A stretch of 64,000 nucleotides of DNA. Origin: a virus. The stretch covers positions 1 through 64,000 of the IMG/VR virus record IMGVR_UViG_3300024999_000081; one strand, given 5' to 3'. The notes beneath the pieces were generated by a model, which did no database searches, was not told the DNA's origin, and saw only the letters and a list, made by a program, of their open reading frames with translations. Below, one piece after another: positions 7,271 to 51,068 of the stretch (positions are counted from its first letter, which is position 1; every line of letters begins with the position of its first letter). The translations under genes were made by a program, and so were the position numbers.

Positions 7271-7287
7271 GATAAACCTATTTCCCT
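7261..7287 (+). terminator. Hairpin after ligA
   Basis: AGGGAGATAGG-ataaa-CCTATTTCCCT. Confidence 0.55.
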
Positions 7288-7511: not shown

Positions 7512-7928
7512 ATGAATAAAATGGAACAACTCCTAAAAATGCAGCAACATTTCCAAAATCTAATAGATGAATATGGATGGGCTTCTCATTATGTAACATT
7601 AGATCAATATCACAATAATTTTCACACGCATGGATTACAAGAAAATTATGACCATCCTGATTTACAAATTACCTTGCCTCTTGATATGAATTCTTCTCAA
7701 GGTATTGCTATAAGAATTATTTCTGATATTAAAGAAGGAAAGTCTTTTGAAGTAGGACAGAAATATTATGGATATTTAAAAGAAGGTTATCCAATTGAAT
7801 TTAAACATTTTGTAGAATGTAATAGACAAGTTTTAAGAGTTTTATTGTGTGATCAGAATAAGAAAATGCCTAGTGAAAAAGGTTGTGATAAGTATTATAA
7901 GAAGCAGTTGGATATTTTAGATGATTAA
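7512..7928 (+). CDS. DUF4262-like protein
   Basis: I..YGWA..V...HTHGL...YDHPDLQI. Confidence 0.65.
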   Translation: MNKMEQLLKMQQHFQNLIDEYGWASHYVTLDQYHNNFHTHGLQENYDHPDLQITLPLDMNSSQGIAIRIISDIKEGKSFEVGQKYYGYLKEGYPIEFKHFVECNRQVLRVLLCDQNKKMPSEKGCDKYYKKQLDILDD

Positions 7929-7949
7929 GTTTTAAAAGGAGTAGAAAAT

Positions 7950-8186
7950 ATGAATACTAAATGGGTTGATTTTACAATTTTAGACTTAGTATGGGATGAA
8001 GAAACTGTTTTTACTCAAGAATATTTTGAGGAATACGTTAATGATAAATTTATTGCAGTCAAATTGAATGAAGATGGTAAACCTCTATATATTTGGACAG
8101 ATAGCTATTGTTTTATTATTACTACGTTTCGTAAGATAGCAATAGGAAGTCCTGCATTAATTGGAATACCGAGAAATCCAGAATAA
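7950..8186 (+). CDS. Hypothetical protein
   Basis: RBS AAGGAG; YIWTD...IPRNP. Confidence 0.7.
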   Translation: MNTKWVDFTILDLVWDEETVFTQEYFEEYVNDKFIAVKLNEDGKPLYIWTDSYCFIITTFRKIAIGSPALIGIPRNPE

Positions 8187-8240
8187 AAGATTTTCAATTC
8201 AATTACCAATTTGCTAGGAATTTAAAAGGAGAATTGAAGA

Positions 8241-9020
8241 ATGAATAAAAAAGATGTAGAATTAAATGAGATTCTTAAAACTATTAAAGAATCTATAGAT
8301 AAAGGATATGAACTTGAAATATCTATAGATTATAATAGTGAATTAAAGGATTTATCAGATAGTAAATTGTATACATCAGAAGAATTAAATAATATGAATT
8401 ACATAAGTTTTATTAGTGAAATATATAATCATTTTAGATCAATAGAAAGAGAACAATTATATGAATTCCAATCTGATTTAGATCATTATTTTGAGGAAGA
8501 TGTTAGTTTCCATTATAGATTATGTGCTATGAGGCCATTCGGAGGTAGTGCAGGGTATAAATACGGAGGTGGTTCTGGCACATTCTCTATGAGAATATTT
8601 TTAACCCAAAGAAAACTATTGCTACAACAACTTTCTAGTCTTTTTATCTTGCCAGATACTTATGAAGAAATAGGAAGAAATTTTATTATAAATGAACATC
8701 CATTTTGTTTAAATAACATTTCTACAGTTATAAAACATATCAAAAATACCATATATAAAAACATTGTTGGTAAGATAATTGATGAAAAATATTATGATAT
8801 TGAACAAAGACGGATAACTCTTGAGGACTTGAAAGAATCTGTTATTATAAATATTAAAACTAACAATTATGAGTTAGATGATTTTGAAATAAGTATTGAT
8901 GATGATTATGGAGATTTTTATTTTGTAATAAATGATAAATATTTAGGTGGCATTGTAAAACTTGTTCAGAGAAAAGAAGTAAAAACGGAGTATTATTTAG
9001 ATATTGAAGACATAGTTTAA
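8241..9020 (+). CDS. Hypothetical protein
   Basis: 259-aa ORF; RBS AAGGAG. Confidence 0.75.
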   Translation: MNKKDVELNEILKTIKESIDKGYELEISIDYNSELKDLSDSKLYTSEELNNMNYISFISEIYNHFRSIEREQLYEFQSDLDHYFEEDVSFHYRLCAMRPFGGSAGYKYGGGSGTFSMRIFLTQRKLLLQQLSSLFILPDTYEEIGRNFIINEHPFCLNNISTVIKHIKNTIYKNIVGKIIDEKYYDIEQRRITLEDLKESVIINIKTNNYELDDFEISIDDDYGDFYFVINDKYLGGIVKLVQRKEVKTEYYLDIEDIV

Positions 9021-9070
9021 ATGAACTAATTTTTGTTAATTTAAAACAAAGAAAGAAGGAGATTATATAA

Positions 9071-10024
9071 ATGAAAGTAAAATTATTCAACCACGTTGAT
9101 TATGATGCCGTTGGATGTGCAGTTTTAGCAAAACAAGCGTTTCCAGAATCACTAGTAGATATCGAATACTGTGATTATGATAATATTAATGAAAAGGTTG
9201 AGAATTTTTATATTGGTTCAGAAAAGAACAATTATGATATGGTGTTTATTACTGATATTTCAGTAAATGAAGAAGTTGCTACAATAATTGAATATTATAA
9301 AGATAAGACATATTATCCAGAAGTTATCTTACTAGACCATCACAAAACTGCTGAATTCCTAAATAAATATGATTGGTGTAAAGTAGTAGAAAATGTAAAT
9401 GGCGAAAAGACATGTGGAACATCTTTATTCTATTATTATTTAATGGAAAAAGGATTTTTACAAAATTCAAGATCGTGGAAATGGGATAGATGTTCTAATC
9501 TATATTCCTTTGTTGAATCAGTTAGAAAATATGATACTTATCTTTGGAAAACTATTTATAATGAAATTGAACCTAAAATGTGGAATGATTTACTTTACAT
9601 AATGGGAAGAGACAATTTCATTGAAAAGATCATGGATATTGTAGAATTTCAGCATGAGTTTGACTTTACTGGATTTGATTTAAAATTGCTTGAATATAAA
9701 CAAAGAGAAATTGATAGTTATATAGAATCAAAAGATAAATCAATTATTGTTACGGATATTCAAGGATATAAAGCAGGAGTTGTATTTGCTGAAAGATATT
9801 CTTCTGAATTAGGGAATAAATTATCTGAATTGCACCCTGAATTAGACTTTATTGCAATTATTAACCCATCTCACTCAGTAAGTTATAGGACAGTAAAAGA
9901 TGTTGATTTGAGTGTTATCGCTGGAGTGTATGGTGGGGGAGGGCATCCTAAAGCTTCTGGAAGTTCTATTGGAGATTACACAAGAAATGAGATTATTAAT
10001 TTAATGTTTGGCAAATCACAATAA
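9071..10024 (+). CDS. DHH/DHHA1 phosphoesterase, copy 2
   Basis: HVDYDA, ITDIS, LLDHH, GGGHPKASG. Confidence 0.9.
   Translation: MKVKLFNHVDYDAVGCAVLAKQAFPESLVDIEYCDYDNINEKVENFYIGSEKNNYDMVFITDISVNEEVATIIEYYKDKTYYPEVILLDHHKTAEFLNKYDWCKVVENVNGEKTCGTSLFYYYLMEKGFLQNSRSWKWDRCSNLYSFVESVRKYDTYLWKTIYNEIEPKMWNDLLYIMGRDNFIEKIMDIVEFQHEFDFTGFDLKLLEYKQREIDSYIESKDKSIIVTDIQGYKAGVVFAERYSSELGNKLSELHPELDFIAIINPSHSVSYRTVKDVDLSVIAGVYGGGGHPKASGSSIGDYTRNEIINLMFGKSQ
9722..9946 (+). repeat. 225-bp direct repeat, copy 2
   Basis: Identical to 2161-2385. Confidence 0.95.
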
Positions 10025-10042
10025 TTTTAAAGGAGCGTTATC

Positions 10043-10246
10043 ATGAGTTTGAAAATAATTAGAGTATGTGATTTATGTGATGATACGTTAGACGGAGAAT
10101 TAAATGATTCTTATTTAACTGTGAGTAGAGATTTAGAGTCTATACTTGATATCGAAGAAGGAACTGACATTTGTGAGATTTGTTTAAAAAGTATAAGACA
10201 AGTTGTACAAGAAAAAGTGACAGAAATTGCTGAGAGCAACCTTTAA
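10043..10246 (+). CDS. Zn-binding hypothetical protein
   Basis: CDLC...DICEIC; RBS. Confidence 0.7.
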   Translation: MSLKIIRVCDLCDDTLDGELNDSYLTVSRDLESILDIEEGTDICEICLKSIRQVVQEKVTEIAESNL

Positions 10247-10263
10247 AATTATGGTTTGAAAGG
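10240..10263. repeat. Best-conserved copy of the intergenic quasi-palindromic site family (putative recombination core)
   Basis: CCTTTAAAA-ttatgg-TTTGAAAGG, 8/9 arm symmetry, overlaps a stop codon; ~24 related copies. Confidence 0.6.
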
Positions 10264-10271
10264 ATGAAATT

Positions 10272-10538
10272 ATGGATTATTCACAAATGATAATAAAAAC
10301 AACTGAAGATTTTTCCTCTTTTAAAAATATAAATATAATTGGTGTTGATGTATTCGGGAATGAAGAGATTAAAGATGTTTTAAGACAATGTACTTATAAT
10401 AAATTTGATGATATGTTAGAATTTGAAATATTAAGTTTGTATGCAAAGCAAAATTATGAATTAAAATATAAAGAATATATGTACGATAGTCAAAATCGTA
10501 TTAAAACTTTTAAATATCACTTATATAAATTACTTTGA
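10272..10538 (+). CDS. Hypothetical protein bracketed by two core sites
   Basis: ORF track; sites at 10246 and 10538. Confidence 0.7.
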   Translation: MDYSQMIIKTTEDFSSFKNINIIGVDVFGNEEIKDVLRQCTYNKFDDMLEFEILSLYAKQNYELKYKEYMYDSQNRIKTFKYHLYKLL

Positions 10539-10570
10539 AAAGAACATTTGGTTGGAAAGGAGATTAAAAT

Positions 10571-10813
10571 ATGTGGTGTAGATATAGATTTAGAACAAAG
10601 TCAGTTGAAGATTATAGACCTTTAGTATTTAATCCGAAATACCCTTGGTGGTGTTCTGGTTATGGCGATGAATGTGCAATTATTGTTGCTTATCTACCAA
10701 CAACAGAACCTCTTTATGCTTATTGGGATGACGCTTATGATATTGATATGGAAGTGGTTAGTAAAATTGAATTCTCAAGTCGTTTTCAGAAACCAGATTA
10801 TTTTGAGGAATAA
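10571..10813 (+). CDS. Hypothetical phage protein
   Basis: RYRF...DYRP...YPWWCSG; RBS AAGGAG. Confidence 0.75.
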   Translation: MWCRYRFRTKSVEDYRPLVFNPKYPWWCSGYGDECAIIVAYLPTTEPLYAYWDDAYDIDMEVVSKIEFSSRFQKPDYFEE

Positions 10814-10832
10814 ATTAGAGGAAGTGTATAAA

Positions 10833-11189
10833 ATGATATTAAAATCAGGTGATTGTTTTCAAGGAGAAGTTGGTAAACCAAGTGGATTAACAGATGTTGA
10901 TGGTAACGAATTGTTTATAGGAGACGTTGTATTAGTTTTAAATCTTGATGATTATGATATATCACATAATCGCATTACATATCAAGGTGGCCTTAACTTT
11001 GTGTGTCAAAATAATAAAGATTGTGGTTATGATGAAGATATGTTTGTTATGGGAATTAAAGATTTATATCAAAATCATGATGGTGAAATCACTCAAGATG
11101 AAGAATGGAAAGTGTTTAAAGTAAAATCTTATAAACAAGTAGTTAATGGTGAGATATGGGGAGTTGTAAGAGCAGTAGACGAAAAGTAA
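10833..11189 (+). CDS. YopX-like protein
   Basis: SGLTDVDGNELFIGDVV resembles the YopX TGLKDKNGKEIYEGDIV motif. Confidence 0.55.
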   Translation: MILKSGDCFQGEVGKPSGLTDVDGNELFIGDVVLVLNLDDYDISHNRITYQGGLNFVCQNNKDCGYDEDMFVMGIKDLYQNHDGEITQDEEWKVFKVKSYKQVVNGEIWGVVRAVDEK

Positions 11190-11211
11190 AACCCTTGCTA
11201 CAAAGGGGTTT
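11189..11211. repeat. 23-bp companion motif (also 15290-15312, 34029-34051, reversed 46582-46604)
   Basis: AAACCCTTGCTACAAAGGGGTTT; 19/23 identical to the 34029 copy. Confidence 0.55.
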
Positions 11212-11270
11212 CAGAGGACGATAATTGACATGAAATTGCATTTTGATGGGTACTGGAGGTGAGATATATA

Positions 11271-11450
11271 ATGAAAGATAAACTCATGATTGAGTTAACT
11301 AAAGAGGAAATGAATGTTGTTAAGAACGGTATGTTATTAATTTTATCCCTCTCAAAAAGAGGGCAACTTGATTTAAAAAACAATGCGAAAGATTTATATG
11401 AAGATGTATATAATAAATTTGATTTACTATATGAAAATAAATGGCGTTAA
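11271..11450 (+). CDS. Hypothetical protein
   Basis: RBS GGAGGTG. Confidence 0.65.
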   Translation: MKDKLMIELTKEEMNVVKNGMLLILSLSKRGQLDLKNNAKDLYEDVYNKFDLLYENKWR

Positions 11451-11471
11451 GTTAAAGGAGGGAAATAATAA

Positions 11472-12533
11472 TTGAACACCACAATATTTTTACCTAAAAC
11501 TATTAAAGTTGGTTATCAAAAACGTTCTGATACATATACAGGTCAACTAGCTTATGTGATCTACTATGATCAAAAAGGGAAATTAAGAAAGGAGACATCT
11601 TGGAATAGTTGGAGAGATGATAAAATTGAACCACAAGAATATTCCAATGAACCAACTTCAGGGTTTGTATTAAATAAAAAGGTTGGAGACTACGTTTCAG
11701 ATTGGAATCATCGACAAGCATATGTAAGAGTTTATGATCCTCGTAACTTTGAATTTGAAATCACTATAGAAAACTTACTTTACATACTTGAAAATGCTAG
11801 TTCAATCAAAGGAAAGGGATTAGAAGGTGATTTTGTTTATGGTTGGGATGGGAAAGATTTAATTTTAATACCTGTAGAATCACCTGACTATAAAGAATTA
11901 AGTGATCTGAACAATTTAAGACACGAGAGAAAGAAATTTGATGGAAAGAATTTAATTTTAGGTGGTACATATAAATCTAATTCCAATAATGAATTAATTT
12001 ATTTGGGTAGATTTTATGAAAATAATGACGATGGCAAAGAAACAAAAACTTATTTCTTTTATAATAGAAACGTAAGTTGGAATAAAATTGTATCTATAAA
12101 ATCTTTATCAGGGAATATAATTGATATTATAGATGAAATTTGTGTAGAAGATTACGCTGATTTGATGGATGAATTATTAAAAGATAGTAAATATTCTGCT
12201 AGAGAACCTAAATATGATACTTATTTGGATTACACATTGGAAGAATTTAAAGCAAATTTAAAAGAAAATGCTTATTGGAGACATAAATATTTTACTCAAA
12301 TAGACAACAAATATGTAAAATATCAAATCGAAAGATACAGTGACTATAGTTGGCATTATAATTATAATAAAGATCAAAAAAATTATACTTATGATGTTTA
12401 TACTACGAATAAAAGACGTAGAGATGAGAAAATAATGGGGTCTGCTTCTCCAGAGCAAATATTCAATAAACTAAATCCAAAATACCTAGTAACATATAAT
12501 CAAAATAAAGAATTAATTAAGGAGTGGAAATAA
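11472..12533 (+). CDS. Large hypothetical phage protein
   Basis: 353 aa; TTG start with RBS AAGGAGG; VRVYDPRNFEFEITIENLL. Confidence 0.8.
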   Translation: MNTTIFLPKTIKVGYQKRSDTYTGQLAYVIYYDQKGKLRKETSWNSWRDDKIEPQEYSNEPTSGFVLNKKVGDYVSDWNHRQAYVRVYDPRNFEFEITIENLLYILENASSIKGKGLEGDFVYGWDGKDLILIPVESPDYKELSDLNNLRHERKKFDGKNLILGGTYKSNSNNELIYLGRFYENNDDGKETKTYFFYNRNVSWNKIVSIKSLSGNIIDIIDEICVEDYADLMDELLKDSKYSAREPKYDTYLDYTLEEFKANLKENAYWRHKYFTQIDNKYVKYQIERYSDYSWHYNYNKDQKNYTYDVYTTNKRRRDEKIMGSASPEQIFNKLNPKYLVTYNQNKELIKEWK

Positions 12534-37251: not shown

Positions 37252-38781
37252 ATGGTTGTTGCTACAAAAACAAAGACAAAAACTACTGTTGCTAAAAAAG
37301 AAATAAGTCCTTATGAACAATTACTTATTGATGCTGTAAAAAAAGTAAAAGAGTTTAAATTATCAGCAGAAGCCAATATAACGTCTATATTTTTTAAGAA
37401 TCCAGAACTAATTTATTCTTATGATAATTTAACATTGCAAGATTTCTCCAATAATGAATGGAAAGTATTATTTACAATTGCTCACGATATTATCAAAAAA
37501 GAAAAGAAACAATCTTTAGATGAAATCACAGTTGGTTTATATCTTGAGAAACATGCTAAATTAAAGGTTAAATATGAGGACTATGGTGGATATGATACTA
37601 TTGAAAAAGCTAAAGAATATATAAAAGAAGAAAATATTAATGGATACGTAGATGAATTACATAAATGGAATGCAGTTTTAGGATTATTAAAAGCTAAATT
37701 TCCTGTATATGATCAACTTAGTAAATTTGCAGATATGAACGTAGAAGAGATATATGCTTATTATGAAACACACCTTAATCATATATTTATTAATGCGGAA
37801 GGAGATGTTACAAGTTACAATATAGCAGATGATATTGATAGTCTAATTGAAGAACTAAATGAAGGATTAGCTGTTGGATTACCTTATTATAATTTACCAA
37901 TGTTAACAAAAGAAACAGGAGGTATGTTATGTGGGAACATTACTCTAATAGGGGGATTATCAAATGTAGGTAAAACAACTTTTGCTAGAAATGCGATTCT
38001 TCAAAGTATCATTGATACTAATGAAAAGATAGTAATTATGTTAAACGAAGATGGTCTAAAGAAGTGGCAGCGCGAAATAATTGTGTATATTGCCAATAAT
38101 ATATTCAAATACGAATTGCAAAAATATATTGTTAGAGATGGCAAATATTCAGAAGAAGTAAAAGAAATATTATATAAAAGTGCTAATTGGTTAAAACAAC
38201 AAAAAGATGCAAAGTTAATTACTATTATACCTTTTAAAAGATGGTCTTCTGCGAATGCAATTAAAATAATGAAAAAATTCTCAAGCTTGAATGTTTATCA
38301 TTACATGATTGATACCTTCAAAAATGATGCAGGTAACGTACAAGATAATGCATGGTTGAGTATGATGCAAAGTATGGTAGATTTATATGATATCGTAAAA
38401 CCAGATGTAAAAAATCTACATCTAACCGCAACTTTTCAATTAGAAAAAGGTAAAACGGCAAGGCAAAGATACTACTCTCAGGATAACGTTGGATTGGCTA
38501 AGAACATTATTGATCCTGTTTCTACATGTCTTATGATTAGGAATTTATTTGAAGATGAATATCCTGATGGAAAGAATGCTTTAAAAGTATATAGATTAGA
38601 AGGTAAAAGGGGGTTAACGAAGATACCTGTAATATTAAATAAAGATAAAAATTATCAACTAATATTCATAGTTAAAAACAGAGAGGGTTCGGCAAATACA
38701 TTTCAGATTGTTATTGAACATAATTTATCGCAAAATACATTAAAAGAAATTGGAATTACCTCCGTACCAGTTGATTTTTGA
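37252..38781 (+). CDS. DnaB-like replicative helicase (YorI-like)
   Basis: GGLSNVGKTT, NE, YMIDTFK, TFQL, KNREG. Confidence 0.9.
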   Translation: MVVATKTKTKTTVAKKEISPYEQLLIDAVKKVKEFKLSAEANITSIFFKNPELIYSYDNLTLQDFSNNEWKVLFTIAHDIIKKEKKQSLDEITVGLYLEKHAKLKVKYEDYGGYDTIEKAKEYIKEENINGYVDELHKWNAVLGLLKAKFPVYDQLSKFADMNVEEIYAYYETHLNHIFINAEGDVTSYNIADDIDSLIEELNEGLAVGLPYYNLPMLTKETGGMLCGNITLIGGLSNVGKTTFARNAILQSIIDTNEKIVIMLNEDGLKKWQREIIVYIANNIFKYELQKYIVRDGKYSEEVKEILYKSANWLKQQKDAKLITIIPFKRWSSANAIKIMKKFSSLNVYHYMIDTFKNDAGNVQDNAWLSMMQSMVDLYDIVKPDVKNLHLTATFQLEKGKTARQRYYSQDNVGLAKNIIDPVSTCLMIRNLFEDEYPDGKNALKVYRLEGKRGLTKIPVILNKDKNYQLIFIVKNREGSANTFQIVIEHNLSQNTLKEIGITSVPVDF

Positions 38782-38807: not shown

Positions 38808-39848
38808 ATGACCTCTATTGAATTAAAACAATACATATTAGATAATAATAAACTACAAGAAATACTAAAATCCCTAGATTGTCATGGTATTAAGGAATAC
38901 ACCAAAGAATTAAGATGTGGATTGCCCAATCATACATCTAATAATAATATTGCAATAAATAAAGAAACGTTATCTACTAAAATATTTCAATCTGATAGTG
39001 AAATAATAAGAGGTGATCTGCTAACTTTAGTTATGACAATAAAAAATATTTCATTTCCAGAAGCAAATAAATATTTACATAAGTTACTTGGCTTAGAGTA
39101 CAAATTTAAAATAAAAGAAGATAAATCTGATAAAAAAGATCCATTGAACGTATTCAAGAAAGTTAAAAGAAAAAGATGTGTTGTTAATCTAGATGACATT
39201 GAGTTGTATGATGAAGGAATTATTAAAGAGTACATTCCATTACCTCACATTGATTGGATAAGAACAGATGGTATTCTACCATTTACATGTGAATTATTTA
39301 AAGTTGGTTATAGTGCAGATAAGAGAAGAATTACACTTCCTTGGCGTATATGGTATGGGGAAGAAAATGATTTTGCGGGTGTGATAGGGCGTACAACCAT
39401 AAAGGAATATTCCATGTTGGATATCCCTAAATATTTTCCATTGAAGAAGTTTCCTAAATCAATGCATTTATATGGATTACAAGAAAATTACAAAACAATT
39501 CAAGAGGCAGGTTATGTTTTGGTTTACGAATCTGAAAAATCAACATTAAAAAGACACAGTAGAAAAGATGGTACTGGAGTATCTATTGGTTCTCATTGTC
39601 TAAGCGAAGAGCAAGTAAAAATATTGATTGGATTGAACGTATCTGTGATTATAGCTTATGACAAAGATGTATCTTTACAATATATTCGTTCTGAATGTGA
39701 AAAATTTAAATTTATTAGACCAATATATTTTATATATGATAAATATGATTTGCTTGAAGATAAAATGAGTCCGGCAGACGCAAGTAATACTATTTTTAAT
39801 TATTTATTAAAACATAAAATAAAATATGATAAATCTGAACATAAATAA
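38808..39848 (+). CDS. DNA primase (DnaG/TOPRIM, YorJ-like)
   Basis: RITLPW, GVIGRT, PKY, LYGL, VYESEKS, IAYDKD, SPAD. Confidence 0.88.
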   Translation: MTSIELKQYILDNNKLQEILKSLDCHGIKEYTKELRCGLPNHTSNNNIAINKETLSTKIFQSDSEIIRGDLLTLVMTIKNISFPEANKYLHKLLGLEYKFKIKEDKSDKKDPLNVFKKVKRKRCVVNLDDIELYDEGIIKEYIPLPHIDWIRTDGILPFTCELFKVGYSADKRRITLPWRIWYGEENDFAGVIGRTTIKEYSMLDIPKYFPLKKFPKSMHLYGLQENYKTIQEAGYVLVYESEKSTLKRHSRKDGTGVSIGSHCLSEEQVKILIGLNVSVIIAYDKDVSLQYIRSECEKFKFIRPIYFIYDKYDLLEDKMSPADASNTIFNYLLKHKIKYDKSEHK

Positions 39849-39873
39849 TATACGAAAGAAGATTGATATAACA

Positions 39874-40583
39874 ATGAATAAAAAATTAGATGTTGAGTTA
39901 AAAGTTAATAAAAGTAAAAAATATATAAATGATTCAATATGGGAAACTAATAATTTTGGTAAGATTAAAATAATTGGTAAAATTGATAAATCACATTATC
40001 TAGTAGAATTTATAGATGATGGAACACAGGTAATCACTCAAGGAGGTTCTATTTGTGGTAAGACAGTTAAAAATCCATATTATCCATTAATTTATAATAT
40101 TGCATGTCTAGGAAGGATATCTCAATATCATTTTTTACATAAAAGATGGGAAAGTATGATAATGAGAATTTATGATAAAAATTGCAAAGCATATAAAAAT
40201 TACGGAGGAAGAAATATAGATATTGATTCAGAATTATTATGTTTTGAAAATTATGTTGAATATATTTCATCATTAAATAATTATAATGATTTAGTAAATA
40301 ATAAGAGAAAATATGATATTGATAGAATAAATAATGATGAAGGATATAAAAAAGGAAATATAAGGATAGCTACTCATTCTATAAATCAAAGAAATACTAG
40401 AAGTAATAATATTATTAAAATGAGTAAAGATAATGTAATCATAGATGAAGATATTATTATAAGATTAGTAGAAAAATATCCTCAATATGATTTAAGACAA
40501 GGTGGAATTAGTTTTGTCGTTAATGGAAATCAAAAATCACATAGGGTTTTACTTTTGAAAAAGTAGAAAAGGAGATAAAATAA
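39874..40583 (+). CDS. HNH homing endonuclease; 3' end frameshifted (G missing near 40545)
   Basis: W.SM..R...YKNYGGR.I...DIDRINNDEGY..GN.R.AT...N.RN; NUMOD-like KSHRGFTF restored by adding one G. Confidence 0.85.
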
Positions 40584-41738
40584 ATGAGAAAACAATTTGA
40601 AGAAATTAAATTAATAGCAAATAAATTAGATTGTGATGAGATTTACTCATGGTCAAAATATAATCAATATAAAGGAGATCCTTATACTTTTTACCTTAAA
40701 TACATCCTTAAAATCCCAGAGGATAGAAAGGATTCAATATATGGAGTATTAGGAAATGCTTCACATGATATATTAGAGAAATATTATAATAAAGAAATAT
40801 CATACACAGATATGATAGAAATATTTGAAGAAAAATTATTTGAATTTACTATTGGTAATCTAAAATATGATAGAAGTGATGAAGAAAAAAATAAAAAGAT
40901 AGGAAATAAATATGAATCATGTATGAGACACTTCTTTAAAAATCATCAACGAATACCTAATAAATTGAAATTAGAAGTATTTGTTCCCATAAAGATAAAT
41001 AATATATTAATTCAAGCTTATATAGATGCTATACATATGGAAAAAAGAGAAGATAAAGATATTTGCATAATTACAGATTGGAAAACAAGCTCTTTATATA
41101 AAGGGAAAAAGGTATTAAAGGAGCGTGGTCAGTTATTACTTTATAGTTATGGCGTTCACAAAAAACTAAACATACCAATGGATCAAATTATAGCTAGATG
41201 GGCGTTCCTTAAATATGTAGAAGTAGAATGTATGCAAGCAAATGGAAAATTAAAAAGTCGCATTATTGAAAGGAATTCCATAGGAAGTAGTTTATCGTCA
41301 AATGCTAAAATGTGGTTAAAGAAATTAGATAGTAAATTTTCAGAAGAACAAATTGATGATTATCTTAGTCAAATGGTAGTTGATAATTCTATAGATTGTT
41401 TGCCAGATGATGTTAAGAGTAAATTTGTAGTGAAAGATTGCTATGTTGAAATATCTTTAGATGATGAATCTATTCAAGAATTATTAGATGATATCGTGAA
41501 GACTGTTGAAGAGATTAAGCAAAAACAAGAAGAGTATAAATTAACATTGGATAATAAAATATGGTGGCAAGATGTTACTGATACAGAGAGTTATTTCTTG
41601 GCGAATTTAAATGGGTATTCGTCAGCGATTCATAAACCATATAGAGAATACCTTGATGCCTTGGGGATGTTTAAGGATAAAGAAAATAGTAAAGTTGATG
41701 AAAATGATCTTTCTTGGATGGAAGGACTTATGGATTAG
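40584..41738 (+). CDS. PD-(D/E)XK nuclease (RecB/AddB-like)
   Basis: YSWSK, LKY, GNASHDILE, E, YIDA, ITDWKTS, QLLLY. Confidence 0.85.
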   Translation: MRKQFEEIKLIANKLDCDEIYSWSKYNQYKGDPYTFYLKYILKIPEDRKDSIYGVLGNASHDILEKYYNKEISYTDMIEIFEEKLFEFTIGNLKYDRSDEEKNKKIGNKYESCMRHFFKNHQRIPNKLKLEVFVPIKINNILIQAYIDAIHMEKREDKDICIITDWKTSSLYKGKKVLKERGQLLLYSYGVHKKLNIPMDQIIARWAFLKYVEVECMQANGKLKSRIIERNSIGSSLSSNAKMWLKKLDSKFSEEQIDDYLSQMVVDNSIDCLPDDVKSKFVVKDCYVEISLDDESIQELLDDIVKTVEEIKQKQEEYKLTLDNKIWWQDVTDTESYFLANLNGYSSAIHKPYREYLDALGMFKDKENSKVDENDLSWMEGLMD

Positions 41739-41749
41739 GAGGAATGAGT

Positions 41750-44170
41750 ATGAATAATATTTTTTATGACTTCGAAGTATTCAAATTAGACTGGATGGTA
41801 GTATGTATCAATCAAACTACAAAAGAAAAAACACAAATTATAAACAATCCTGATGAATTACGTGAATTTTATGAGTTGCACAAAGAAGATATCTGGATAG
41901 GATATAATAGTCGTAATTATGATCAATACATACTTAAAGGAATTTTATTAGGTATGAATCCATACAAAATCAATAATGAAATTATTCTCAATGATAAAAA
42001 AGGTAATCAAGTAGTAAAAAAATCAAATACTTTTCCACTAAATAATTTTGATATTTCTACTGGTTTTCATAGTTTGAAACAATTGGAAGGATTTCTTGGA
42101 TCTAAAATCCAAGAGTCCTCAGTACCATTTACTATAAACAGAAAACTAACACCAGAAGAATTAGATGAAGTATTAGAATATTGTACACATGACGTTGAAC
42201 AAACAATTGAAGTATTCAATCATAGAAAGGAAGAATTCGACAGTCAATTATCTTTAATTCAAGCATTTAATATGCCAATGACTATGTTTACAAAAACAAA
42301 AGCACAACTTTCAGCTATTATTTTAGATTCACAAAAAACCGAAAGAAATGATGAATTTGAATTAACTATACCTGACACACTACTTATATCTGATAAATAT
42401 AAGTATATCGTGGATTGGTATAAAGTTAAAGAGAATATGAATTATAAGAAAAGCTTAATTACAGATGTAGCAGGGGTTCAACATGTATTTGCTTGGGGAG
42501 GAATTCATGGTGCAATACCAAATTATTCATATGAAGGAATTATACTTTGTTGTGATGTTGCATCTCTTTATCCTGCATTAATGATAGAATATGGTTTTGT
42601 AAGTAGAAATGTAAGTGATTCTAGTAAATACAAAGAAATAAGGGATACTCGTTTAAAATTAAAAGCAGCAAAAAACCCCATGCAATTACCTTATAAAATT
42701 GTTCTTAATGCTACCTACGGAGCAATGAAAGATGAATATAATAATTTATATGATCCTTTAATGGCTAATAATGTGTGCATTGCTGGACAATTATTATTAC
42801 TAGACTTAATAGATAAAATTGAGCCATTCTGTGAATTAATACAATCGAATACAGATGGTTTATTCCTTAAAATTAATAACATTGAAGATATTGAAAAGAT
42901 AAAAAACGTAGCAAAAGAATGGGAAATAAGAACAAGATTAGATTTAGAATGGGAAATATTTGATAAGATTTTTCAAAAAGACGTTAATAACTATATTATT
43001 ATTGATGCTAAAGGAAAGTATAAATCCAAAGGGGCATATGTAAAAAAACTAAATGCAATTGATTATGATTTACCAATTATTAACGATGCTTTAATAAATT
43101 ATTTTGTAAATGGTAAACAAATTGAAGATACTATTAATGAATGTAATGATCTTATCAAATATCAGAAGATTGTTAAAGTATCAAGATTATACCAACACGC
43201 TTTGTATGGAGATGTAAAAATAAACGAAAGAGTATTAAGAGTTTTTGCTAGTATGGAGGAATCATCCCCAGGAGTATTCAAAGTAAAAGGAGAAGATAAA
43301 ATTGAGAAAATAGGTAATACTCCAGAACATTGTTTTATTTACAATGAAGAAGTTTTACATGAAAGTATTCCAAAAGAATTGAATAAACAATATTATTTGG
43401 ATATGGCAAATAAAAGATTACATGACTTCTTAGACCCAAAAGTAAAGAAACAAAAATTACCAAGTGATATTAAATTTATAACTAATGCAATTAGAGATTC
43501 TATCTGTAATATTATTGATGAAAATCCGAATATTAATTTTATTGATTTATTAAATATTATCTTTGAAAATGTAAAAGTTAGTGCTAGACAAATAAATATT
43601 CTTATTATATTGAACTATTTTATTAATTATGGAAAAAATAAAAAACTTATGCAAATTCTTGATCTATATAATAAACATGGCAAACGTAAACAATTAAAAA
43701 TAAAGGATCTTGAAAAACTAGAAATAAAGGAGAATATATTAATAAAATATTCTCAAGATAAAACTGAAAACCAATATCGTAAATTAGATATGACTGGATA
43801 TATAAAAGAAGTGAGCGTGGAATTTGAAGATAAGGCATTGTCTATCAAAGAACAAATTAAGAATGAATTGGAATATGCTGATACGATTTTCACCACTTAT
43901 GAACAAGCTGGAGATAACTTCTATATTGTAATTGATTTAAAAAATACTGATAAATTTAAACCGCATGTAATTCTGAGACAAATCAATTCAGGAGAAGAAG
44001 TACGAACAAAAATTAAAGAAGCTACTATTTATATTGAAAATCCTTTTAAATTATTCTCTGTTTTGAAAGTGAGAGAATTTAACCATCAAAAGAAAAGTAT
44101 AATGATTGATGGTAAATGGGGAAAATCAAGTGAAACTGAAAAAATATTATTTGACTATGAGGTGTATTAA
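41750..44170 (+). CDS. DNA polymerase: family-B exo+pol core with a DnaE-like C-terminal extension
   Basis: Exo YDFE, GYNSRNYD, YCTHDV; PolB DVASLYP, KIVLNATYG, QSNTDG, DVNNY, KGAY; extra ~240 aa after KRLHDF. Confidence 0.88.
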   Translation: MNNIFYDFEVFKLDWMVVCINQTTKEKTQIINNPDELREFYELHKEDIWIGYNSRNYDQYILKGILLGMNPYKINNEIILNDKKGNQVVKKSNTFPLNNFDISTGFHSLKQLEGFLGSKIQESSVPFTINRKLTPEELDEVLEYCTHDVEQTIEVFNHRKEEFDSQLSLIQAFNMPMTMFTKTKAQLSAIILDSQKTERNDEFELTIPDTLLISDKYKYIVDWYKVKENMNYKKSLITDVAGVQHVFAWGGIHGAIPNYSYEGIILCCDVASLYPALMIEYGFVSRNVSDSSKYKEIRDTRLKLKAAKNPMQLPYKIVLNATYGAMKDEYNNLYDPLMANNVCIAGQLLLLDLIDKIEPFCELIQSNTDGLFLKINNIEDIEKIKNVAKEWEIRTRLDLEWEIFDKIFQKDVNNYIIIDAKGKYKSKGAYVKKLNAIDYDLPIINDALINYFVNGKQIEDTINECNDLIKYQKIVKVSRLYQHALYGDVKINERVLRVFASMEESSPGVFKVKGEDKIEKIGNTPEHCFIYNEEVLHESIPKELNKQYYLDMANKRLHDFLDPKVKKQKLPSDIKFITNAIRDSICNIIDENPNINFIDLLNIIFENVKVSARQINILIILNYFINYGKNKKLMQILDLYNKHGKRKQLKIKDLEKLEIKENILIKYSQDKTENQYRKLDMTGYIKEVSVEFEDKALSIKEQIKNELEYADTIFTTYEQAGDNFYIVIDLKNTDKFKPHVILRQINSGEEVRTKIKEATIYIENPFKLFSVLKVREFNHQKKSIMIDGKWGKSSETEKILFDYEVY

Positions 44171-46429
44171 TTGGCAAACAAAAATAAAATAATTTACGAA
44201 TTCAAAGGTGTTGTAGTCGCAAACCCCTATAATACTGACGATTATAAAATATATGCCTTAGAGGTTGATGATATTAAATACCCACATATAGCGAGAAATA
44301 CATATCAAAATGTTAGTATTTTAGGTAATCTGCCTGACTTAGAGATAGGTATAGAATATTCAGTAAAAGGCGAAGAAAAAGAAGGCAAGAATGGTATATC
44401 GTATAAGGTAATTAATATTGGAAGAGATATACCTAAAACAGAAACAGCAACTAGATTATTTTTACAAAGTATATTAGATAGTAATAGTCATGTTGATGAG
44501 GTAATGCGCGAATATCCTGATATTATTGATAGAGTTATCAATAATCGTTTAGATGACATTGACTTAAACAAACTCTATAATATTGGGAAAGTTAGATTCG
44601 AGGTTATTAAAAGAAAAATAATTGAAAACTTTGTATTAAGTGAGTTGGTCACGGAATTTAAGGGATTTATCGAATTCAAAATCTTAAAGGCATTATATGA
44701 TAAATATGGTTCAGTGGATAATATTAAAGAAAAACTTCAAAATGATCCGTACAAGTGCTTATGCGGTCTCTCACATACGGCCTTCAAAACAGCAGACAAA
44801 ATACTCCTTGAATTTAACAAAGACTGCATTGCAACAAAAGCTAAAGGAGAAGTCCCTCCAATTGATTTCACTTTCGATTTACAAACTTCTAGTCAAAGAC
44901 AAAAATCAGCAATCATGTTTTTACTAGAAGAAAATGAGAACGATGGTAATACAAAAATTGATATTAAAGTTTTAAGAAAACAATCCGAATCTTTAGCAAA
45001 AAAATGTATTGAACACTTTGTTAATATTATCAAGAATGATAAAGATATTCATTTTGATAAGGGGTTAAATACTGTTGCTTTAGAAGAAACATATCAAACA
45101 GAATTATACATTGCTAATAGAATTTTAGAAGGCTTGAAGGTGGATAATAAGTGGGATATTGATACTGAAAAATATAGAGATAATGGTGATATTGTTCTAA
45201 CTGATCAACAACATAAAGTTTTACCTATGGTGTGTAATTCTAATGTATGTATTCTCAATGGGTTTTCAGGAAGTGGAAAGTCAGCAACTACTAAATCAGT
45301 AATTGATATGCTCAAAGATAATAATAAGTCATTTTGTTTATTTGCACCTACGGGAAGAGCTGCAAAGGTATTATCAGAATTTACCAAAGAAAATGCATCT
45401 ACTATACATAGAGGGTTGGCTTATATGCCTCCAGATTGGGGGTATAATGAGGAACATAAATTACCTTATGATGTAGTGGCGGTAGACGAATTCGGGATGT
45501 GCGATGTATTTTTAATGAAACATCTTTTAGAAGCAATTGATTTTAGAAAAACTAAATTATTAATGATTGGAGATTCAAGTCAAATTCCATCTGTTGGAGC
45601 AGGAAATGCTTTCTATGACTTAATTAATTCAAACCTAATACCCATAATTTCTTTAACACAAATATTTAGATATGGAGAAGGAGGAGTCTTGACTGTAGCA
45701 ACTAAAACTAGAAATTGTGAAAAGTTTCTGGAATATTCTTCGAAACCGCAAGTATTTGGAAATGATAAAGGATATATGTTTGTTCCAATGCAACAAGAAA
45801 AAATAATTAAAAATGTTGTAGCTTTATATCAAAAATTATTGTCATCTGGAAATTTAAGAGAAGATATAATGATTTTATCTTCATATAATGTTGGAGATTA
45901 TGGAACAATTGCTATAAATAAATATCTACAACCTATCGCCAATCCTAATGTCACACAAAAAGGAATTAATGTTCAAATTGGTGAAACAAAGTTTTATGAA
46001 AATGATCTAATTATTCAAACAGTAAATAATTATAAAGCAATAAGATATAAAGATGGTTGGATAGACGAAGATGATAAAACATTTGTTGCAAATGGTGAGA
46101 TTGGTAAAGTAATTAAAATTGAATACGGCAAAGTAATTATAATGTTTGATGAATTGGTTGTTTATACTAAGAATGATTTATTAAATGTTAAGCTTGGATA
46201 TTCAATATCTACATTTAAAGCACAAGGCGGTCAGGCTAAAATAGTTATTATGATTACCCCTAAAGCTCATACCTTTATGCTTAATAGTAATCTTATCTAT
46301 GTTGCACAAACAAGGGCTAAACAAAAAGTATTTCATTTTGGAGAAAATGAGACAGTAAATAGAGCTATTAAAAAGAAAGCAGATTTTAATAGAAAAACCC
46401 ATCTTAAAGAATTATTGTTAAACTCTTAA
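44171..46429 (+). CDS. recD2: RecD2-like SF1B helicase
   Basis: DPY, F..AD, GFSGSGKS, APTGRAA, TIHR, VDE, IGDSSQIPSVGAG, LTQIFR, NGEIG, YVAQTRAK. Confidence 0.92.
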   Translation: MANKNKIIYEFKGVVVANPYNTDDYKIYALEVDDIKYPHIARNTYQNVSILGNLPDLEIGIEYSVKGEEKEGKNGISYKVINIGRDIPKTETATRLFLQSILDSNSHVDEVMREYPDIIDRVINNRLDDIDLNKLYNIGKVRFEVIKRKIIENFVLSELVTEFKGFIEFKILKALYDKYGSVDNIKEKLQNDPYKCLCGLSHTAFKTADKILLEFNKDCIATKAKGEVPPIDFTFDLQTSSQRQKSAIMFLLEENENDGNTKIDIKVLRKQSESLAKKCIEHFVNIIKNDKDIHFDKGLNTVALEETYQTELYIANRILEGLKVDNKWDIDTEKYRDNGDIVLTDQQHKVLPMVCNSNVCILNGFSGSGKSATTKSVIDMLKDNNKSFCLFAPTGRAAKVLSEFTKENASTIHRGLAYMPPDWGYNEEHKLPYDVVAVDEFGMCDVFLMKHLLEAIDFRKTKLLMIGDSSQIPSVGAGNAFYDLINSNLIPIISLTQIFRYGEGGVLTVATKTRNCEKFLEYSSKPQVFGNDKGYMFVPMQQEKIIKNVVALYQKLLSSGNLREDIMILSSYNVGDYGTIAINKYLQPIANPNVTQKGINVQIGETKFYENDLIIQTVNNYKAIRYKDGWIDEDDKTFVANGEIGKVIKIEYGKVIIMFDELVVYTKNDLLNVKLGYSISTFKAQGGQAKIVIMITPKAHTFMLNSNLIYVAQTRAKQKVFHFGENETVNRAIKKKADFNRKTHLKELLLNS

Positions 46430-47900: not shown

Positions 47901-50900
47901 TTGACAAAAATGAATGATAATGTAGAAAAACTTTTAGAAAAAAGATATTACTTGAGAGATAATAATGATAATTTTACGGAACATTCATGGTCAGACATAT
48001 CTCAAAGAATCGCAAATAGTATTGCTCAAGCTGAAAATGAAAAGGATATTCCTTATTACATAAAACAATTTTATAATAAGATCAATGATATGGAGTTCAT
48101 TCCTTCTTCTCCGTGTATCTTTAACGCAGGAACACCTTCCCAATCATTGAGTTCATGTTTTGTAGTAGATATTGAAGATAATATTGAAGGTATCTTTTCC
48201 ACTGTTGCAGAATGTGCAAAGATTTTTCAAATGAGTGGCGGAGCAGGATTCTCAATGAGAAAGATTCGCCCCAAAGGTTCATTGTGCAAATCATCTGGTT
48301 CTAATGCTTCAGGAGTATGTTCTTTTATGCATGTTTTTAATGAAGTTGTAAATAGGGTTAAACAAGGAAATAAAAGAAATGGTGCATTAAAAATCGACCT
48401 ACCTTGTACTCATCCAGAGATTTTTGATTTTATTCACTCTAAAGACATTACTGAAGATTTAAAAAACATGAATATATCCGTTAGTATCACAGATGAATTT
48501 GTTAAAGCAGTAGAAAATAGCGAAGACTGGGATTTAAAATTCAATGGATTAGTTTATCAAACAATCAAAGCAATTGATTTGTGGAATGAAATTATGCTAT
48601 GCGCTTGGAAGACAGGGGAGCCAGGATTGAGTTATCAGTCCAATATGGATAAAGGAAATATGAATCCTCAATTAAATGAATCTGTATATGGTAATCCTTG
48701 TTTTTCTGGGGATATGAGATTACTAACTGTAGATGGGTATAAAACATTTGAAGAATTATCTGAAACAACAGTTAAGATTATTAATTCAAATGGAGATATA
48801 TCTGATAGTAATGTTTGGTGTAGTGGAGAGAAAGATACTATTGAATTAACAACCAGTAATAAGAAGAAAATTAGATGTACTCCAGATCATATTGTTATGC
48901 TGAACGATAATGAAGAATGTGAGATTCAATATGCTTTAAAGAAAAGAGTTATGCCATATCACGGAAAAACAAATGTTTCTAAAGATTTGTTTGTTCAATT
49001 AGGTTTCTTACAAGGAGATGGTGGCATTGGAAGAATTAATTCTGAAGCGCATCTTGGTTTAGAAATAAATATTGGAGAAAAAGATAAAGAAATATTTGAA
49101 TTATTTAATATTGTGCCTATTGATGGAAAAAAGGCATATTATACTAATGGATATAATAATACTTTAGTTAAGTATGGGTTTGACGGAAGTCCTTTGCCAG
49201 AAAGAGTATTTCCTATTACATATACTAATTGGACAAAAGAACAAAAATTAAATTTCTTAAAAGGTTGTTATTCTGCAAATGGTTGTGTGATAAAGACGCA
49301 TAGGATTTCTTATAAAACAACTTCTAAAGTATTCTCTTTGCAATTAAAAAAGGCATTAGAAGAGTTTGATATTGTTTCATATATTACTACCAATAAACCT
49401 ACAATGGTAAAGTTTACAAATGGTGATTATCTGTGTAAAGAAAGTTATGATATAAATATTGGTAGATTAGATGATGTAATTTTCTTCTATCAAAATATTG
49501 GGTTTATGCAACAATATAAAATAAATGATCTTGTAGATTTAATTAAACTAAAAAGCCCAAAAATAATGACCATGAAGCAGTTGGGAAAACAAAAGGTTTA
49601 TGACTTTTCAGAACCATTGACACATTGGGGAGTAGTAGAAGGATTAGTAGTACATAATTGTCATGAATATGTCAATATTCCATATTCTTCATGCAACTTA
49701 GCTTCGGTAAATCTTAAAAAAGTAATTGAACACAGCAAAGTAAATTGGTTTAAATTAAAAGAAAATATTGAATTAACTTTCAGATTCCTAGATGACATGA
49801 TTACCATGAATAGACTTCCTCTTGAAAAGATTAAAACTATTACACATCTAATTAGACCAATAGGGCTTGGGACAATGGGTTTTGCTCAATTACTATATGA
49901 ATTAAAAATACCTTATAATTCTCAAGAATGCTTAGACTTTATTGATGTGCTATATGGTTTTATTGAGAAAACGTGTCTTGAATACAATGTAAAACTTGGA
50001 AAAGAAAGAGGAATCTATCCTGCATGGAAGGGAAGTAAATGGGAAGAAGAAAACCTTGAAGTTAGATGCTCTAGTATGACTAGTATTGCTCCAAATGGAA
50101 GTATTGCATTTATTGCGGATACAACAGGGGGAATCGAGCCTCAATTTGCCCTTGTCTACAAGCGCAGAGACAAAGAAAATGATGAATATATGGTTGCAGA
50201 TAGTGTTTTCGAAAATTATCTCAAAGAGAATGGTCTTTACACAAAAGAGATATTAGATAAAATTAATGAAAATAAAGGTTCTATTAAAGGATTGGATAGC
50301 ATATTCACTCAAGAAATACAAAACATATTTGTAACTGCAAATGATATTTCACCAGAATGGCATGTGAAAGTATTAGCACAAATACAGAAATACATATGTT
50401 TAAGTATCTCCAAGACAGTCAATTTGCCAAATAATGCAACTATAGAAGATGTAGGAAATGTATATTTAATGGCAGCTAAATTAGGAATCAAAGGTGTTAC
50501 TGTATATCGCGATGGTTGCAGATCCAATCAAATATTAAGTGTTGGAGAAGCAACTGAAGAAATTCCTAAACAAGAATTTGTTTTTCCTGCTGAGACATTA
50601 AAATATGCACATGCTGAAAGATTCAAGGTTGATTCTGGATGTGGGAGTTTTTGGTTATTCTTATGTTTTGATGATAATGAAAATCTTAGAGAAATATTTT
50701 CTCAATCAGCAACTCAAGGAGGATGCCAAGGTTTAACCGAAGCATTATCAAGAATGACTTCGTTGGCACTGAAATCTAATATCCATCCTGAAGTAATTAT
50801 TGACCAACTTAAATCAGTTAGATGTCCTGTTAGTATGATGATGAGAAAGGAAAAAGGATTGGATTCTAGGTCGTGTGCAGATGCAATTGGTAATGCTATT

Positions 50901-51068
50901 AGAGATTTTATCAAAGGTAAAGATTTAAAAGTAGCAATAGTAAAAGAAACAAAAACCATTCAAATTGAAAATTCAGATTCAACTAAATGTCCTGAATGTG
51001 GTGCAGAATTAGGTATGACTGAGGGTTGCAGAACGTGTCCTAATTGCTTTTATAGTAAATGCTCATAA
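47901..51068 (+). CDS. nrdJ: Class II (AdoCbl-dependent) ribonucleotide reductase with intein
   Basis: LEKRY, F.PSSP..FNAG, LSSCF, GGAG, VKQG.KRNGA, GEPG, NP|C.E, CNLAS, RPIGLG, IAPNGS, ISKTVN, KGVTVYRDG; C-terminal TSCPD-like domain and Zn ribbon. Confidence 0.92.
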   Translation: MTKMNDNVEKLLEKRYYLRDNNDNFTEHSWSDISQRIANSIAQAENEKDIPYYIKQFYNKINDMEFIPSSPCIFNAGTPSQSLSSCFVVDIEDNIEGIFSTVAECAKIFQMSGGAGFSMRKIRPKGSLCKSSGSNASGVCSFMHVFNEVVNRVKQGNKRNGALKIDLPCTHPEIFDFIHSKDITEDLKNMNISVSITDEFVKAVENSEDWDLKFNGLVYQTIKAIDLWNEIMLCAWKTGEPGLSYQSNMDKGNMNPQLNESVYGNPCFSGDMRLLTVDGYKTFEELSETTVKIINSNGDISDSNVWCSGEKDTIELTTSNKKKIRCTPDHIVMLNDNEECEIQYALKKRVMPYHGKTNVSKDLFVQLGFLQGDGGIGRINSEAHLGLEINIGEKDKEIFELFNIVPIDGKKAYYTNGYNNTLVKYGFDGSPLPERVFPITYTNWTKEQKLNFLKGCYSANGCVIKTHRISYKTTSKVFSLQLKKALEEFDIVSYITTNKPTMVKFTNGDYLCKESYDINIGRLDDVIFFYQNIGFMQQYKINDLVDLIKLKSPKIMTMKQLGKQKVYDFSEPLTHWGVVEGLVVHNCHEYVNIPYSSCNLASVNLKKVIEHSKVNWFKLKENIELTFRFLDDMITMNRLPLEKIKTITHLIRPIGLGTMGFAQLLYELKIPYNSQECLDFIDVLYGFIEKTCLEYNVKLGKERGIYPAWKGSKWEEENLEVRCSSMTSIAPNGSIAFIADTTGGIEPQFALVYKRRDKENDEYMVADSVFENYLKENGLYTKEILDKINENKGSIKGLDSIFTQEIQNIFVTANDISPEWHVKVLAQIQKYICLSISKTVNLPNNATIEDVGNVYLMAAKLGIKGVTVYRDGCRSNQILSVGEATEEIPKQEFVFPAETLKYAHAERFKVDSGCGSFWLFLCFDDNENLREIFSQSATQGGCQGLTEALSRMTSLALKSNIHPEVIIDQLKSVRCPVSMMMRKEKGLDSRSCADAIGNAIRDFIKGKDLKVAIVKETKTIQIENSDSTKCPECGAELGMTEGCRTCPNCFYSKCS
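48699..49658 (+). mobile_element. 320-aa intein with LAGLIDADG endonuclease in nrdJ
   Basis: Starts CFSGD, block B CTPDH, LGFLQGDG and FLKGCYSANG, ends VVHN followed by Cys. Confidence 0.93.

Follow-up and report, generated by a model that had tools for sequence, protein, structure and literature searches.

A putative natural chimera of a family-B DNA polymerase and the C-terminal module of phage DnaE

The catalytic fold of family-B DNA polymerases is unrelated to that of family C, and the question raised by the locus described here is how a single viral gene can begin as the one and end as the other. The DNA analysed, hereafter the window, is a stretch of 64,000 nucleotides (positions 1 to 64,000 of the 76-kb IMG/VR virus record IMGVR_UViG_3300024999_000081), the sequence of which is held in public groundwater metagenome runs. 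On the + strand, at positions 41750..44170, the window encodes a protein of 806 amino acids (aa; coordinates with the stop codon, from the list of open reading frames, ORFs, and their translation) which consists of a family-B DNA polymerase (PolB) core and a tail resembling the end of the family-C polymerase DnaE. The explanation considered best, at a probability of roughly 80%, is that this gene encodes the replicative DNA polymerase of the phage and is a natural B/C chimera, in which a PolB replaced the catalytic part of DnaE and the tail of the resident gene was kept as an accessory module.

Results and Discussion

The polymerase gene and its family-B core

The + strand reading frame runs uninterrupted from a TTG codon at 41714 to the stop codon at 44168-44170 and offers three candidate starts (TTG 41714, ATG 41744 and ATG 41750), the longest version overlapping the stop codon of the upstream nuclease gene (41738). 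Since homologues open with MxxIFYDFEVF, ATG 41750 (or 41744) is the likely start of the polymerase. All peptides quoted in the first-pass annotation, an earlier reading made from the letters of the window, were found in the translation: the end of the PolB part, KQYYLDMANKRLHDF, lies at about residue 561 and is followed, in the order given there, by the tail peptides DIKFITNAIRDSI...FIDLL...VSARQINILIILNYFINYGKNKKL...LSIKEQIKNELEY...YIVID...GEEVRTKIK. The two parts differ in charge: the isoelectric point (pI) is 5.5 for the acidic core and 8.8 for the basic tail. The G+C content of the window is low (26-32%).

The family-B part, comprising a 3'-5' exonuclease followed by palm, fingers and thumb, occupies residues 1-561 (41750..43432, + strand). 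A search with residues 2-566 revealed a match to the DNA polymerase family phrog_1252 (E 8e-162), and tblastn matched 1158 phage records, none of which extends over the tail. The best of these matches (54-56% identity over residues 2-566) are the stand-alone polymerases of Paenibacillus phage Wanderer, Staphylococcus PI-Sepi-HH2 and Bacillus vB_BtS_BMBtp15, the 563-aa polymerase of Wanderer (gp63) aligning with the core end to end at 56% identity. When the Protein Data Bank was searched with the family profile, only family-B polymerases were retrieved (Sulfolobus PolB1, E 1.6e-6). Likewise, the top Foldseek matches of the full-length AlphaFold2 (AF2) model all belong to family B (KOD, Tgo, Pfu, 9N and Pol alpha; E 3e-14 to 4e-12, probability 1.00). 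In Pfam the window core scores 22.1 bits against PF00136 (DNA_pol_B; E 7.7e-5), just below the gathering cut-off of 23 bits, PF00136 matches 11 of 15 relatives of the core (best E 3.3e-7), and the full-length chimera gave no Pfam match at E<=1.

The catalytic motifs are in place on the + strand. The exonuclease motifs ExoI (D7/E9), ExoII (N53/D58) and ExoIII (Y144/D148) span 41768..42196; among 54 fused and stand-alone relatives E9, N53, D58, Y144 and D148 are invariant and D7 is present in at least 90%. Motif A, DVASLYPA (42554..42577, with D269), aligns with DFASLYPSI of Sulfolobus PolB1, and its residues D269, S272, Y274 and P275 are invariant in the same 54 proteins, as are the columns K316, N320 and G324 of motif B, KIVLNATYG (42695..42721), the counterpart of which in PolB1, KOD and Pol II is, by alignment, their motif B region. 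Motif C (42845..42859) is the variant SNTDG (N367, T368, D369), aligning with GDTDS of Sulfolobus PolB1; the second aspartate, D369, is retained and the variant is invariant across the 54 relatives, among which the KxY motif, present as SKGAY, is invariant as well. By its motifs and predicted fold, the segment of residues 1-566 is a complete family-B polymerase with intact catalytic motifs, in agreement with the first-pass annotation, which had ascribed complete PolB exonuclease and polymerase motifs to the first ~560 residues.

The DnaE-type C-terminal tail

The rest of the protein had been read as the helix-hairpin-helix (HhH) plus OB-fold end of DnaE from large Firmicutes phages. Searching the two parts separately, as had been proposed, returned PolB for residues 2-566 and phage DnaE C-termini for residues 572-806. 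The latter align with residues 795-1032 of CST061, the 1032-aa DnaE of Clostridium phage c-st, to its very end, at 33% identity (E 1e-36 to 3e-34 in small-database BLASTP; 7e-15 in tblastn of all phage records). When the 234-aa tail alone was compared by tblastn with 50,697 phage records, seven were matched, each at the extreme C-terminus of an annotated DnaE; they come from c-st, D-1873, Geobacillus E3 and Thomasclavelia TR-TP1, and in the DnaE proteins concerned the domains PHP, DNA_pol3_alpha, finger and HHH_6 are recognised. When 1.8 billion representatives were searched exhaustively with phmmer, 392 relatives of the tail were obtained, each matched at its C-terminus. Among the best 150 of the 392, all those with classifiable upstream sequence are DnaE (full-length, intein-bearing or split), with the exception of two PolB-fused fragments.

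Three subdomains can be distinguished in the tail. The first (43466..43684, + strand; residues 573-645) is helical and HhH-like, with four helices modelled at a predicted local distance difference test score (pLDDT) above 95. It is followed by a middle alpha/beta segment (43685..43906, +; residues 646-719), which ends, before the OB fold, in a conserved ..ELEY.. element; this segment is conserved with phage DnaE tails (consensus ExEYLGY in alignment A1) and modelled at high confidence. The C-terminal OB fold (43907..44167, +; residues 720-806) closes the protein, which stops right after it. The same order of HhH, middle segment and OB fold, with nothing C-terminal of the OB fold, is found in the DnaE of c-st, and the last ~235 residues are homologous to those of the SPbeta YorL-type phage DnaE proteins (CST061 of c-st, GP96 of E3 and the split DnaE of TR-TP1). 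Unlike these, the window protein is devoid of the family-C PHP, palm, thumb and fingers domains. In Pfam searches the PHP domain (PF02811) was absent from it and present in c-st, E3 and P0007-P0010, and family-C palm/fingers (PF07733, PF17657) were detected neither in the chimera, nor in the 76-kb record, nor in a complete 178-kb relative.

Structure prediction, which had also been suggested, points in the same direction: a family-B fold for the core and, for the tail modelled on its own (pLDDT 94), a fold like that of the C-terminus of Pol III alpha. With VIA-align the last ~90 residues of the tail model (162-250) match the OB folds of single-stranded DNA-binding protein (SSB), PriB and RPA (Z 6-6.8), and the only PDB chains matched by the whole model are Pol III alpha subunits, namely those of Taq (865-1121, Z 7.0, 177 residues), M. 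tuberculosis (836-1099, Z 6.5) and E. coli (825-1073, Z 6.3); these Z values of 6.3-7.0 are modest and corroborate the sequence evidence without being convincing alone. A tail profile, which includes some upstream DnaE sequence from fragments, gives a match at E 4e-17 to Taq Pol III alpha in its HhH region. Foldseek with the tail alone returned weak OB-fold matches and no DnaE. Taken at the level of homology and modelled fold, the tail is the C-terminal HhH plus OB module of phage DnaE, and on this point tblastn, BLASTP, phmmer and the colinear Pol III alpha fold agree with the earlier assignment.

The similarity extends to cellular Pol III alpha (Taq 2HPI, M. tuberculosis DnaE1 7PU7, E. coli 5FKU), in which the HhH is likewise followed by the OB fold over 177-194 aligned residues. 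It is limited to ~12% identity, however, and the window protein differs from the cellular enzymes in having no tau-binding domain past the OB fold; on inspection of the tail by eye, the only check made, no convincing internal motif for clamp binding (QL[SD]LF-like) was recognised.

Junction and distribution of the fusion

The two parts are joined by a Lys-rich linker, LDPKVKKQKLPS (43433..43465, + strand; residues 562-572), at the B-family/C-family junction. It is the sole low-confidence stretch of the full-length AF2 model (pLDDT 90.4, predicted template modelling score 0.73), with the dip in confidence confined to residues 561-580. As stated in the first-pass annotation for small siphophages, stand-alone PolBs do stop at a KRL.DF-type motif: ...KRLxDFL ends both the Wanderer enzyme (563 aa) and the 571-576-aa PolBs of prophages of Bacillus velezensis, B. 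amyloliquefaciens and B. rugosus. In the junction alignment the fused forms run on from there through the Lys-rich linker into PS[DE]IKF, which corresponds to ..KG[LI]SSIK[YF] of DnaE, the start of the HhH motif.

The 120 best relatives of the core fall into 40 clusters of 773-822 aa and 80 clusters of 556-621 aa. A hidden Markov model (HMM) built solely from the C-terminal DnaE-tail fragments of alignment A1, with the query left out, recognises every one of the 40 long PolBs (E 1e-24 to 1e-76) but not a single one of the 80 short PolBs. Hence full-length fusions, for which a search had been advised, make up 40 or more clusters (at 90% identity). The same fusion was also seen on IMG/VR contigs of other samples. 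The junction itself, for which spanning sequence had been called for, is bridged without differences by Logan contigs of two runs, which are possibly the source samples. The reading frame is open in all relatives, and both parts are under purifying selection, dN/dS being 0.04-0.07 in the core and 0.12-0.17 in the tail. The fusion is not an assembly artefact: independent contigs and no fewer than 40 clusters contain it, and its tail is under purifying selection. The B/C hybrid replicase, expected in the first-pass annotation to be highly unusual, is not a one-off, as there is a sizeable uncultured family.

A more distant fused form of 849 aa was also observed on 69-135-kb viral contigs (L058, L060, L062 and L064, at 7989-10538), with a core ~48% identical to that of the window and a tail HMM match at E 1e-27; a RecD2-like gene of 782-1118 aa lies directly after it (10540 onward). 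The family of chimeras thus extends past the forms of ~800 aa.

The dnaE slot of the replication module

The gene had been said to sit where SPbeta-like phages have DnaE, and comparison with c-st places it exactly there. Around the polymerase seven homologous genes are colinear between the window and c-st, where DnaE occupies the slot; the c-st record labels the genes as homologues of SPbeta YorI, YorJ and YorL, DnaE being the YorL homologue. The window genes for which coordinates follow lie on the + strand. The DnaB-like replicative helicase (37252..38781; phrog_19, E 5e-33) is 57% identical to CST058, the YorI homologue, and the primase (38808..39848) is 52% identical to CST059, the YorJ homologue. 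Directly upstream of the polymerase a PD-(D/E)XK nuclease is encoded (40584..41738; PF12705, E 7e-15), 44% identical to CST060, both proteins being 384 aa long. The gene for a RecD2-like SF1B helicase (44171..46429; AAA_30, AAA_19, UvrD_C_2, SH3_13 and HHH_RecD2) begins at the base after the polymerase stop codon, and its product is 46% identical to CST062, which likewise directly follows DnaE. The slot thus has the helicase, primase and nuclease upstream and RecD2 downstream in both phages. Among the other flanking genes, the AAA_24 protein shows 33% and the CST057 homologue 45% identity. In its flanks c-st is about as similar to the window as are the deepest fused relatives (L035 and L063).

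A near-identical, CheckV-complete relative of 178 kb (G001, the contig behind L004) contains no match to PF07733 (DnaE core), PF00476 (PolA) or PF02768 (beta clamp), nor a Pfam match to SSB (PF00436). Because neither a DnaE core nor PolA is present in this complete relative, the chimera is the only recognisable DNA polymerase.

These observations suggest a mechanism in which an intact family-B polymerase would have replaced the PHP, palm, thumb and fingers of DnaE inside a c-st/SPbeta-like replication module. With the crossover placed at the start of the DnaE HhH motif, the last ~235 residues of the resident DnaE (HhH, middle segment and OB fold) would have stayed in frame behind the Lys-rich linker and been kept as a self-contained accessory module. 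The in-place replacement of the PHP/palm core of dnaE with retention of the tail, as put forward in the first-pass annotation, is largely supported by the two-part homology, the exact junction and the colinear c-st flanks, the slot being occupied there by the YorL homologue between flanks 44-57% identical to those of the window.

Several observations weigh against this interpretation. The tail is less similar to its c-st counterpart (33%) than the flanks are to theirs (44-57%), which leaves descent from a resident gene of the c-st kind plausible and short of proof; P0011, the DnaE tail that came closest, is 45% identical and known here from the protein alone. Pfam HHH_6 gives no match to the window protein, the first third of that domain (~28 positions) being replaced by the linker, and the c-st alignment accordingly begins, at residue 795, within the HHH_6 match of that DnaE (767-854). 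The hairpin glycines of the HhH are not conserved in the alignment of phage tails, and DNA binding by the tail is predicted from homology and fold. Finally, Bacillus-type modules with the same helicase-primase-nuclease order use a tail-less PolB, and therefore the core does not strictly need the tail.

Possible role of the tail

Cellular Pol III alpha contacts DNA through its HhH and OB domains. By analogy, the tail is most likely a DNA tether, with the HhH bound to the duplex and the OB fold to the single-stranded template, which would give the clamp-less polymerase an extra grip like that provided by the same domains in Pol III alpha.

The tail may additionally or instead dock resident replisome proteins. 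That it has been selected mainly for docking and not for DNA binding, the partners being the helicase, primase, nuclease, RecD2 or a host factor, is a possibility that deserves attention, although we do not favour it. Retention of the resident tail behind a newly acquired catalytic core would fit such a role, as would the apparent lack of strongly conserved basic residues in the tail alignment. In another swap among SPbeta-like phages the polymerase was exchanged as one block with the helicase, the primase and the exonuclease, which suggests co-adaptation (Yutin et al. 2024, Virol J, PMC11348598). A RecD2 gene adjoins the tail-bearing polymerases of clade A (a group of fused relatives), the L058 type, c-st, L022, L030 and TR-TP1 and follows none of ~25 tail-less PolBs in comparable modules, an association which is imperfect and based on phylogenetically non-independent observations. 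Many tail-bearing polymerases, however, have no adjacent RecD2 gene (the L014 type, the L113 type, E3, L033 and L034), tail-less PolBs work next to homologous helicase, primase and nuclease genes, and the DNA contacts made by the homologous domains of Pol III alpha speak for the tether. A predicted complex of the tail with the downstream RecD2-like helicase scored 0.00, which is no evidence either way.

The occurrence of the same tail on two cores offers a handle on the role of the C-terminal region in clamp-less phage DnaE. In addition, the same core can be compared with and without the tail, in the fused forms and in the Bacillus prophage forms, respectively.

One origin or repeated exchange of the core

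Whether the fusion arose once or several times was approached by comparing the histories of the two parts, which, as far as sequence comparison goes, are decoupled. Clade A relatives with cores 65-74% identical to that of the window have tails scoring 117-226 bits against the window tail; those with cores of 73-74% identity have tails 47-51% identical (205-226 bits). The relatives of group B, in contrast, have cores 70-72% identical and tails of just 28-30% identity (59-76 bits). The tails of each fused group score better against particular DnaE tails than against those of other fused groups. Group B primases most resemble the primases encoded at DnaE-bearing loci (38-46% identity) and are only 26-27% identical to that of the window; a small matrix of tail identities, in which short HSPs are mixed, was left aside. 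In a careful maximum likelihood (ML) tree the clade A tails join the DnaE tails P0011, P0013 and P0032 (support 95/94), and a single fused clade was recovered in 0 of 200 bootstrap trees. Moreover, the core of a Bacillus prophage PolB is 66% identical to that of the window, whereas the flanking helicase, primase and nuclease reach only 26-33%; therefore the core moves between module lineages.

These patterns argue against a single origin, in which the fusion would have arisen once elsewhere by accretion of the domain onto a PolB and then moved whole into dnaE slots, so that the tail would not be the resident's own. Such a history seems improbable, even though the lower identity of the window tail to the c-st tail than of the flanks to theirs would agree with it and approximately unbiased (AU) tests fail to reject one fused clade (for tails p 0.675 on the quick tree and p 0.143 on the careful tree; for cores p 0.175). 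Quick ML tail trees, with the fused tails in 3-5 groups, were not used, as the constrained tree had a higher likelihood than the free one. The core tree places the tail-less Bacillus clade within the fused forms (AU p 0.175), and from it neither loss of the tail nor multiple gains is established.

We lean, by a slight preponderance, to a third view of the boundary before the DnaE HhH, namely as a reusable joint at which PolB and DnaE cores have repeatedly been swapped as cassettes onto the tail of the recipient lineage. If this is true, it would be the HhH-OB tail, and not the catalytic core, that co-evolves with the phage replisome. Repeated cassette exchange is somewhat more likely than not, and unproven because a single fused clade withstands the AU tests. 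For the clade of the window, no near-identical sister phages were found in which the same tail follows a DnaE core, the best verified DnaE tail being 45-49% identical.

As for the remaining idea, that the tail is a functionless leftover of recombination or the junction an assembly artefact, it is effectively refuted: the tail does evolve faster (close relatives are 64-91% identical in the tail and 76-96% in the core), but its frame is open in all relatives, it is kept in the clusters from several sources described above with dN/dS well below one (0.12-0.17), it is predicted to fold confidently (pLDDT 94), and contigs of several samples as well as Logan contigs cross the junction.

Comparison with known systems

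The closest stand-alone counterparts of the core are the phrog_1252 PolBs (Wanderer gp63, PI-Sepi-HH2, vB_BtS_BMBtp15 and Bacillus prophages), which are 54-68% identical over the whole core and have identical catalytic motifs. Unlike the chimera, they end at ...KRLxDFL with at most a short Lys-rich stub, the HhH/OB tail being found in 0 of 80 and no RecD2 gene behind them. In Bacillus prophages of 84-173 kb (L010, B. rugosus contig, 6397-11728; L039-L057) a helicase, a primase, a PD-(D/E)XK nuclease and a tail-less PolB of 572-632 aa were observed; these modules are arranged in a yorI-yorL-like order, without RecD2 behind.

In-situ swapping of DNA polymerases has been described in Caudoviricetes, including the Spbetavirus clade; the swaps reported are between families A and B, between A and C and within families, involving the whole gene or several genes and keeping the order of the neighbours (PMC11348598). 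The case presented here resembles those swaps in that polymerases of different families occupy one slot, the gene order is kept and the same broad assemblage of 61-185-kb SPbeta-like phages is concerned. It differs from the whole-gene swaps reported there in that only the catalytic part would have been exchanged, the last ~235 residues staying DnaE-like. No B-for-C swap, intragenic crossover or retained C-terminal module is mentioned in the accessible text of that paper, in which the words "C-terminal" and "fusion" occur 0 times. In-situ swapping would thus be extended in two ways, by a replacement of C by B and by a crossover inside the gene.

Fusion of HhH modules to the C-terminus of a family-B polymerase, meant to strengthen its hold on DNA, has an engineered precedent: such fusions are reported to improve phi29 polymerase (PMC8313265), and chimeric polymerases with appended HhH domains have been reviewed (PMC11339088). 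The phi29 constructs offer a functional analogy to the chimera, from which they differ in being man-made, in carrying HhH repeats of the topoisomerase V type and in having no OB fold. As a natural counterpart of tether-enhanced polymerases the chimera may be of practical interest. Such a chimera goes unmentioned in the searched passages of a survey of PolB diversity (PMC7544198) and of one on bacterial polymerases (PMC12926913), and in the literature, the journal coverage being incomplete, no account of a PolB bearing a DnaE tail was found. A natural combination of a B core with a C accessory module would show the HhH-OB end of DnaE to be an autonomous unit, independent of the catalytic fold to which it is attached.

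Other features of the module

Between the primase and the nuclease lies an ORF resembling HNH homing endonucleases (39826..40566, + strand; phrog_2081, E 1.5e-24), which is missing at this place in c-st. Related HNH-like copies were also seen, at other positions, in sister phages (L004, 3165-4037; L008, 2531-3388 and 5662-6303; L013, 3281-3973), and in L013, a contig of an Izemoplasmatales metagenome-assembled genome, the PolB::tail gene is interrupted by the copy and so falls into two ORFs. Recombination by which parts of polymerases are exchanged could be favoured by such mobile endonucleases of the module.

SSB as well as gp4 and gp2.5 of T7 dock on their partners by acidic C-terminal tips. 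The C-terminus of the PD-(D/E)XK nuclease (~41690-41738) forms a similarly acidic, aromatic tip, ..DENDLSWMEGLMD, which is kept as EEDLSWxxxL in fused clade A and takes the form ..DFDDLFG or DDDFDLFG in the tail-less Bacillus modules. Being reminiscent of the SSB, gp4 and gp2.5 tips, it could be a candidate polymerase-binding peptide.

Further downstream, the 1055-aa large subunit of a ribonucleotide reductase (47901-51068, +) contains an intein with a LAGLIDADG domain, as indicated by the Pfam matches Intein_splicing and LAGLIDADG_3 inside Ribonuc_red_lgC; in the 178-kb relative the protein occurs in a version of 740 aa. Finally, in Logan assemblies of the groundwater runs, alternative contigs with 18-23 differences per ~200 bases at 43102-43309 and 43714-43891 were found beside the exact sequence, and therefore close strains of the window phage coexist in the sample.

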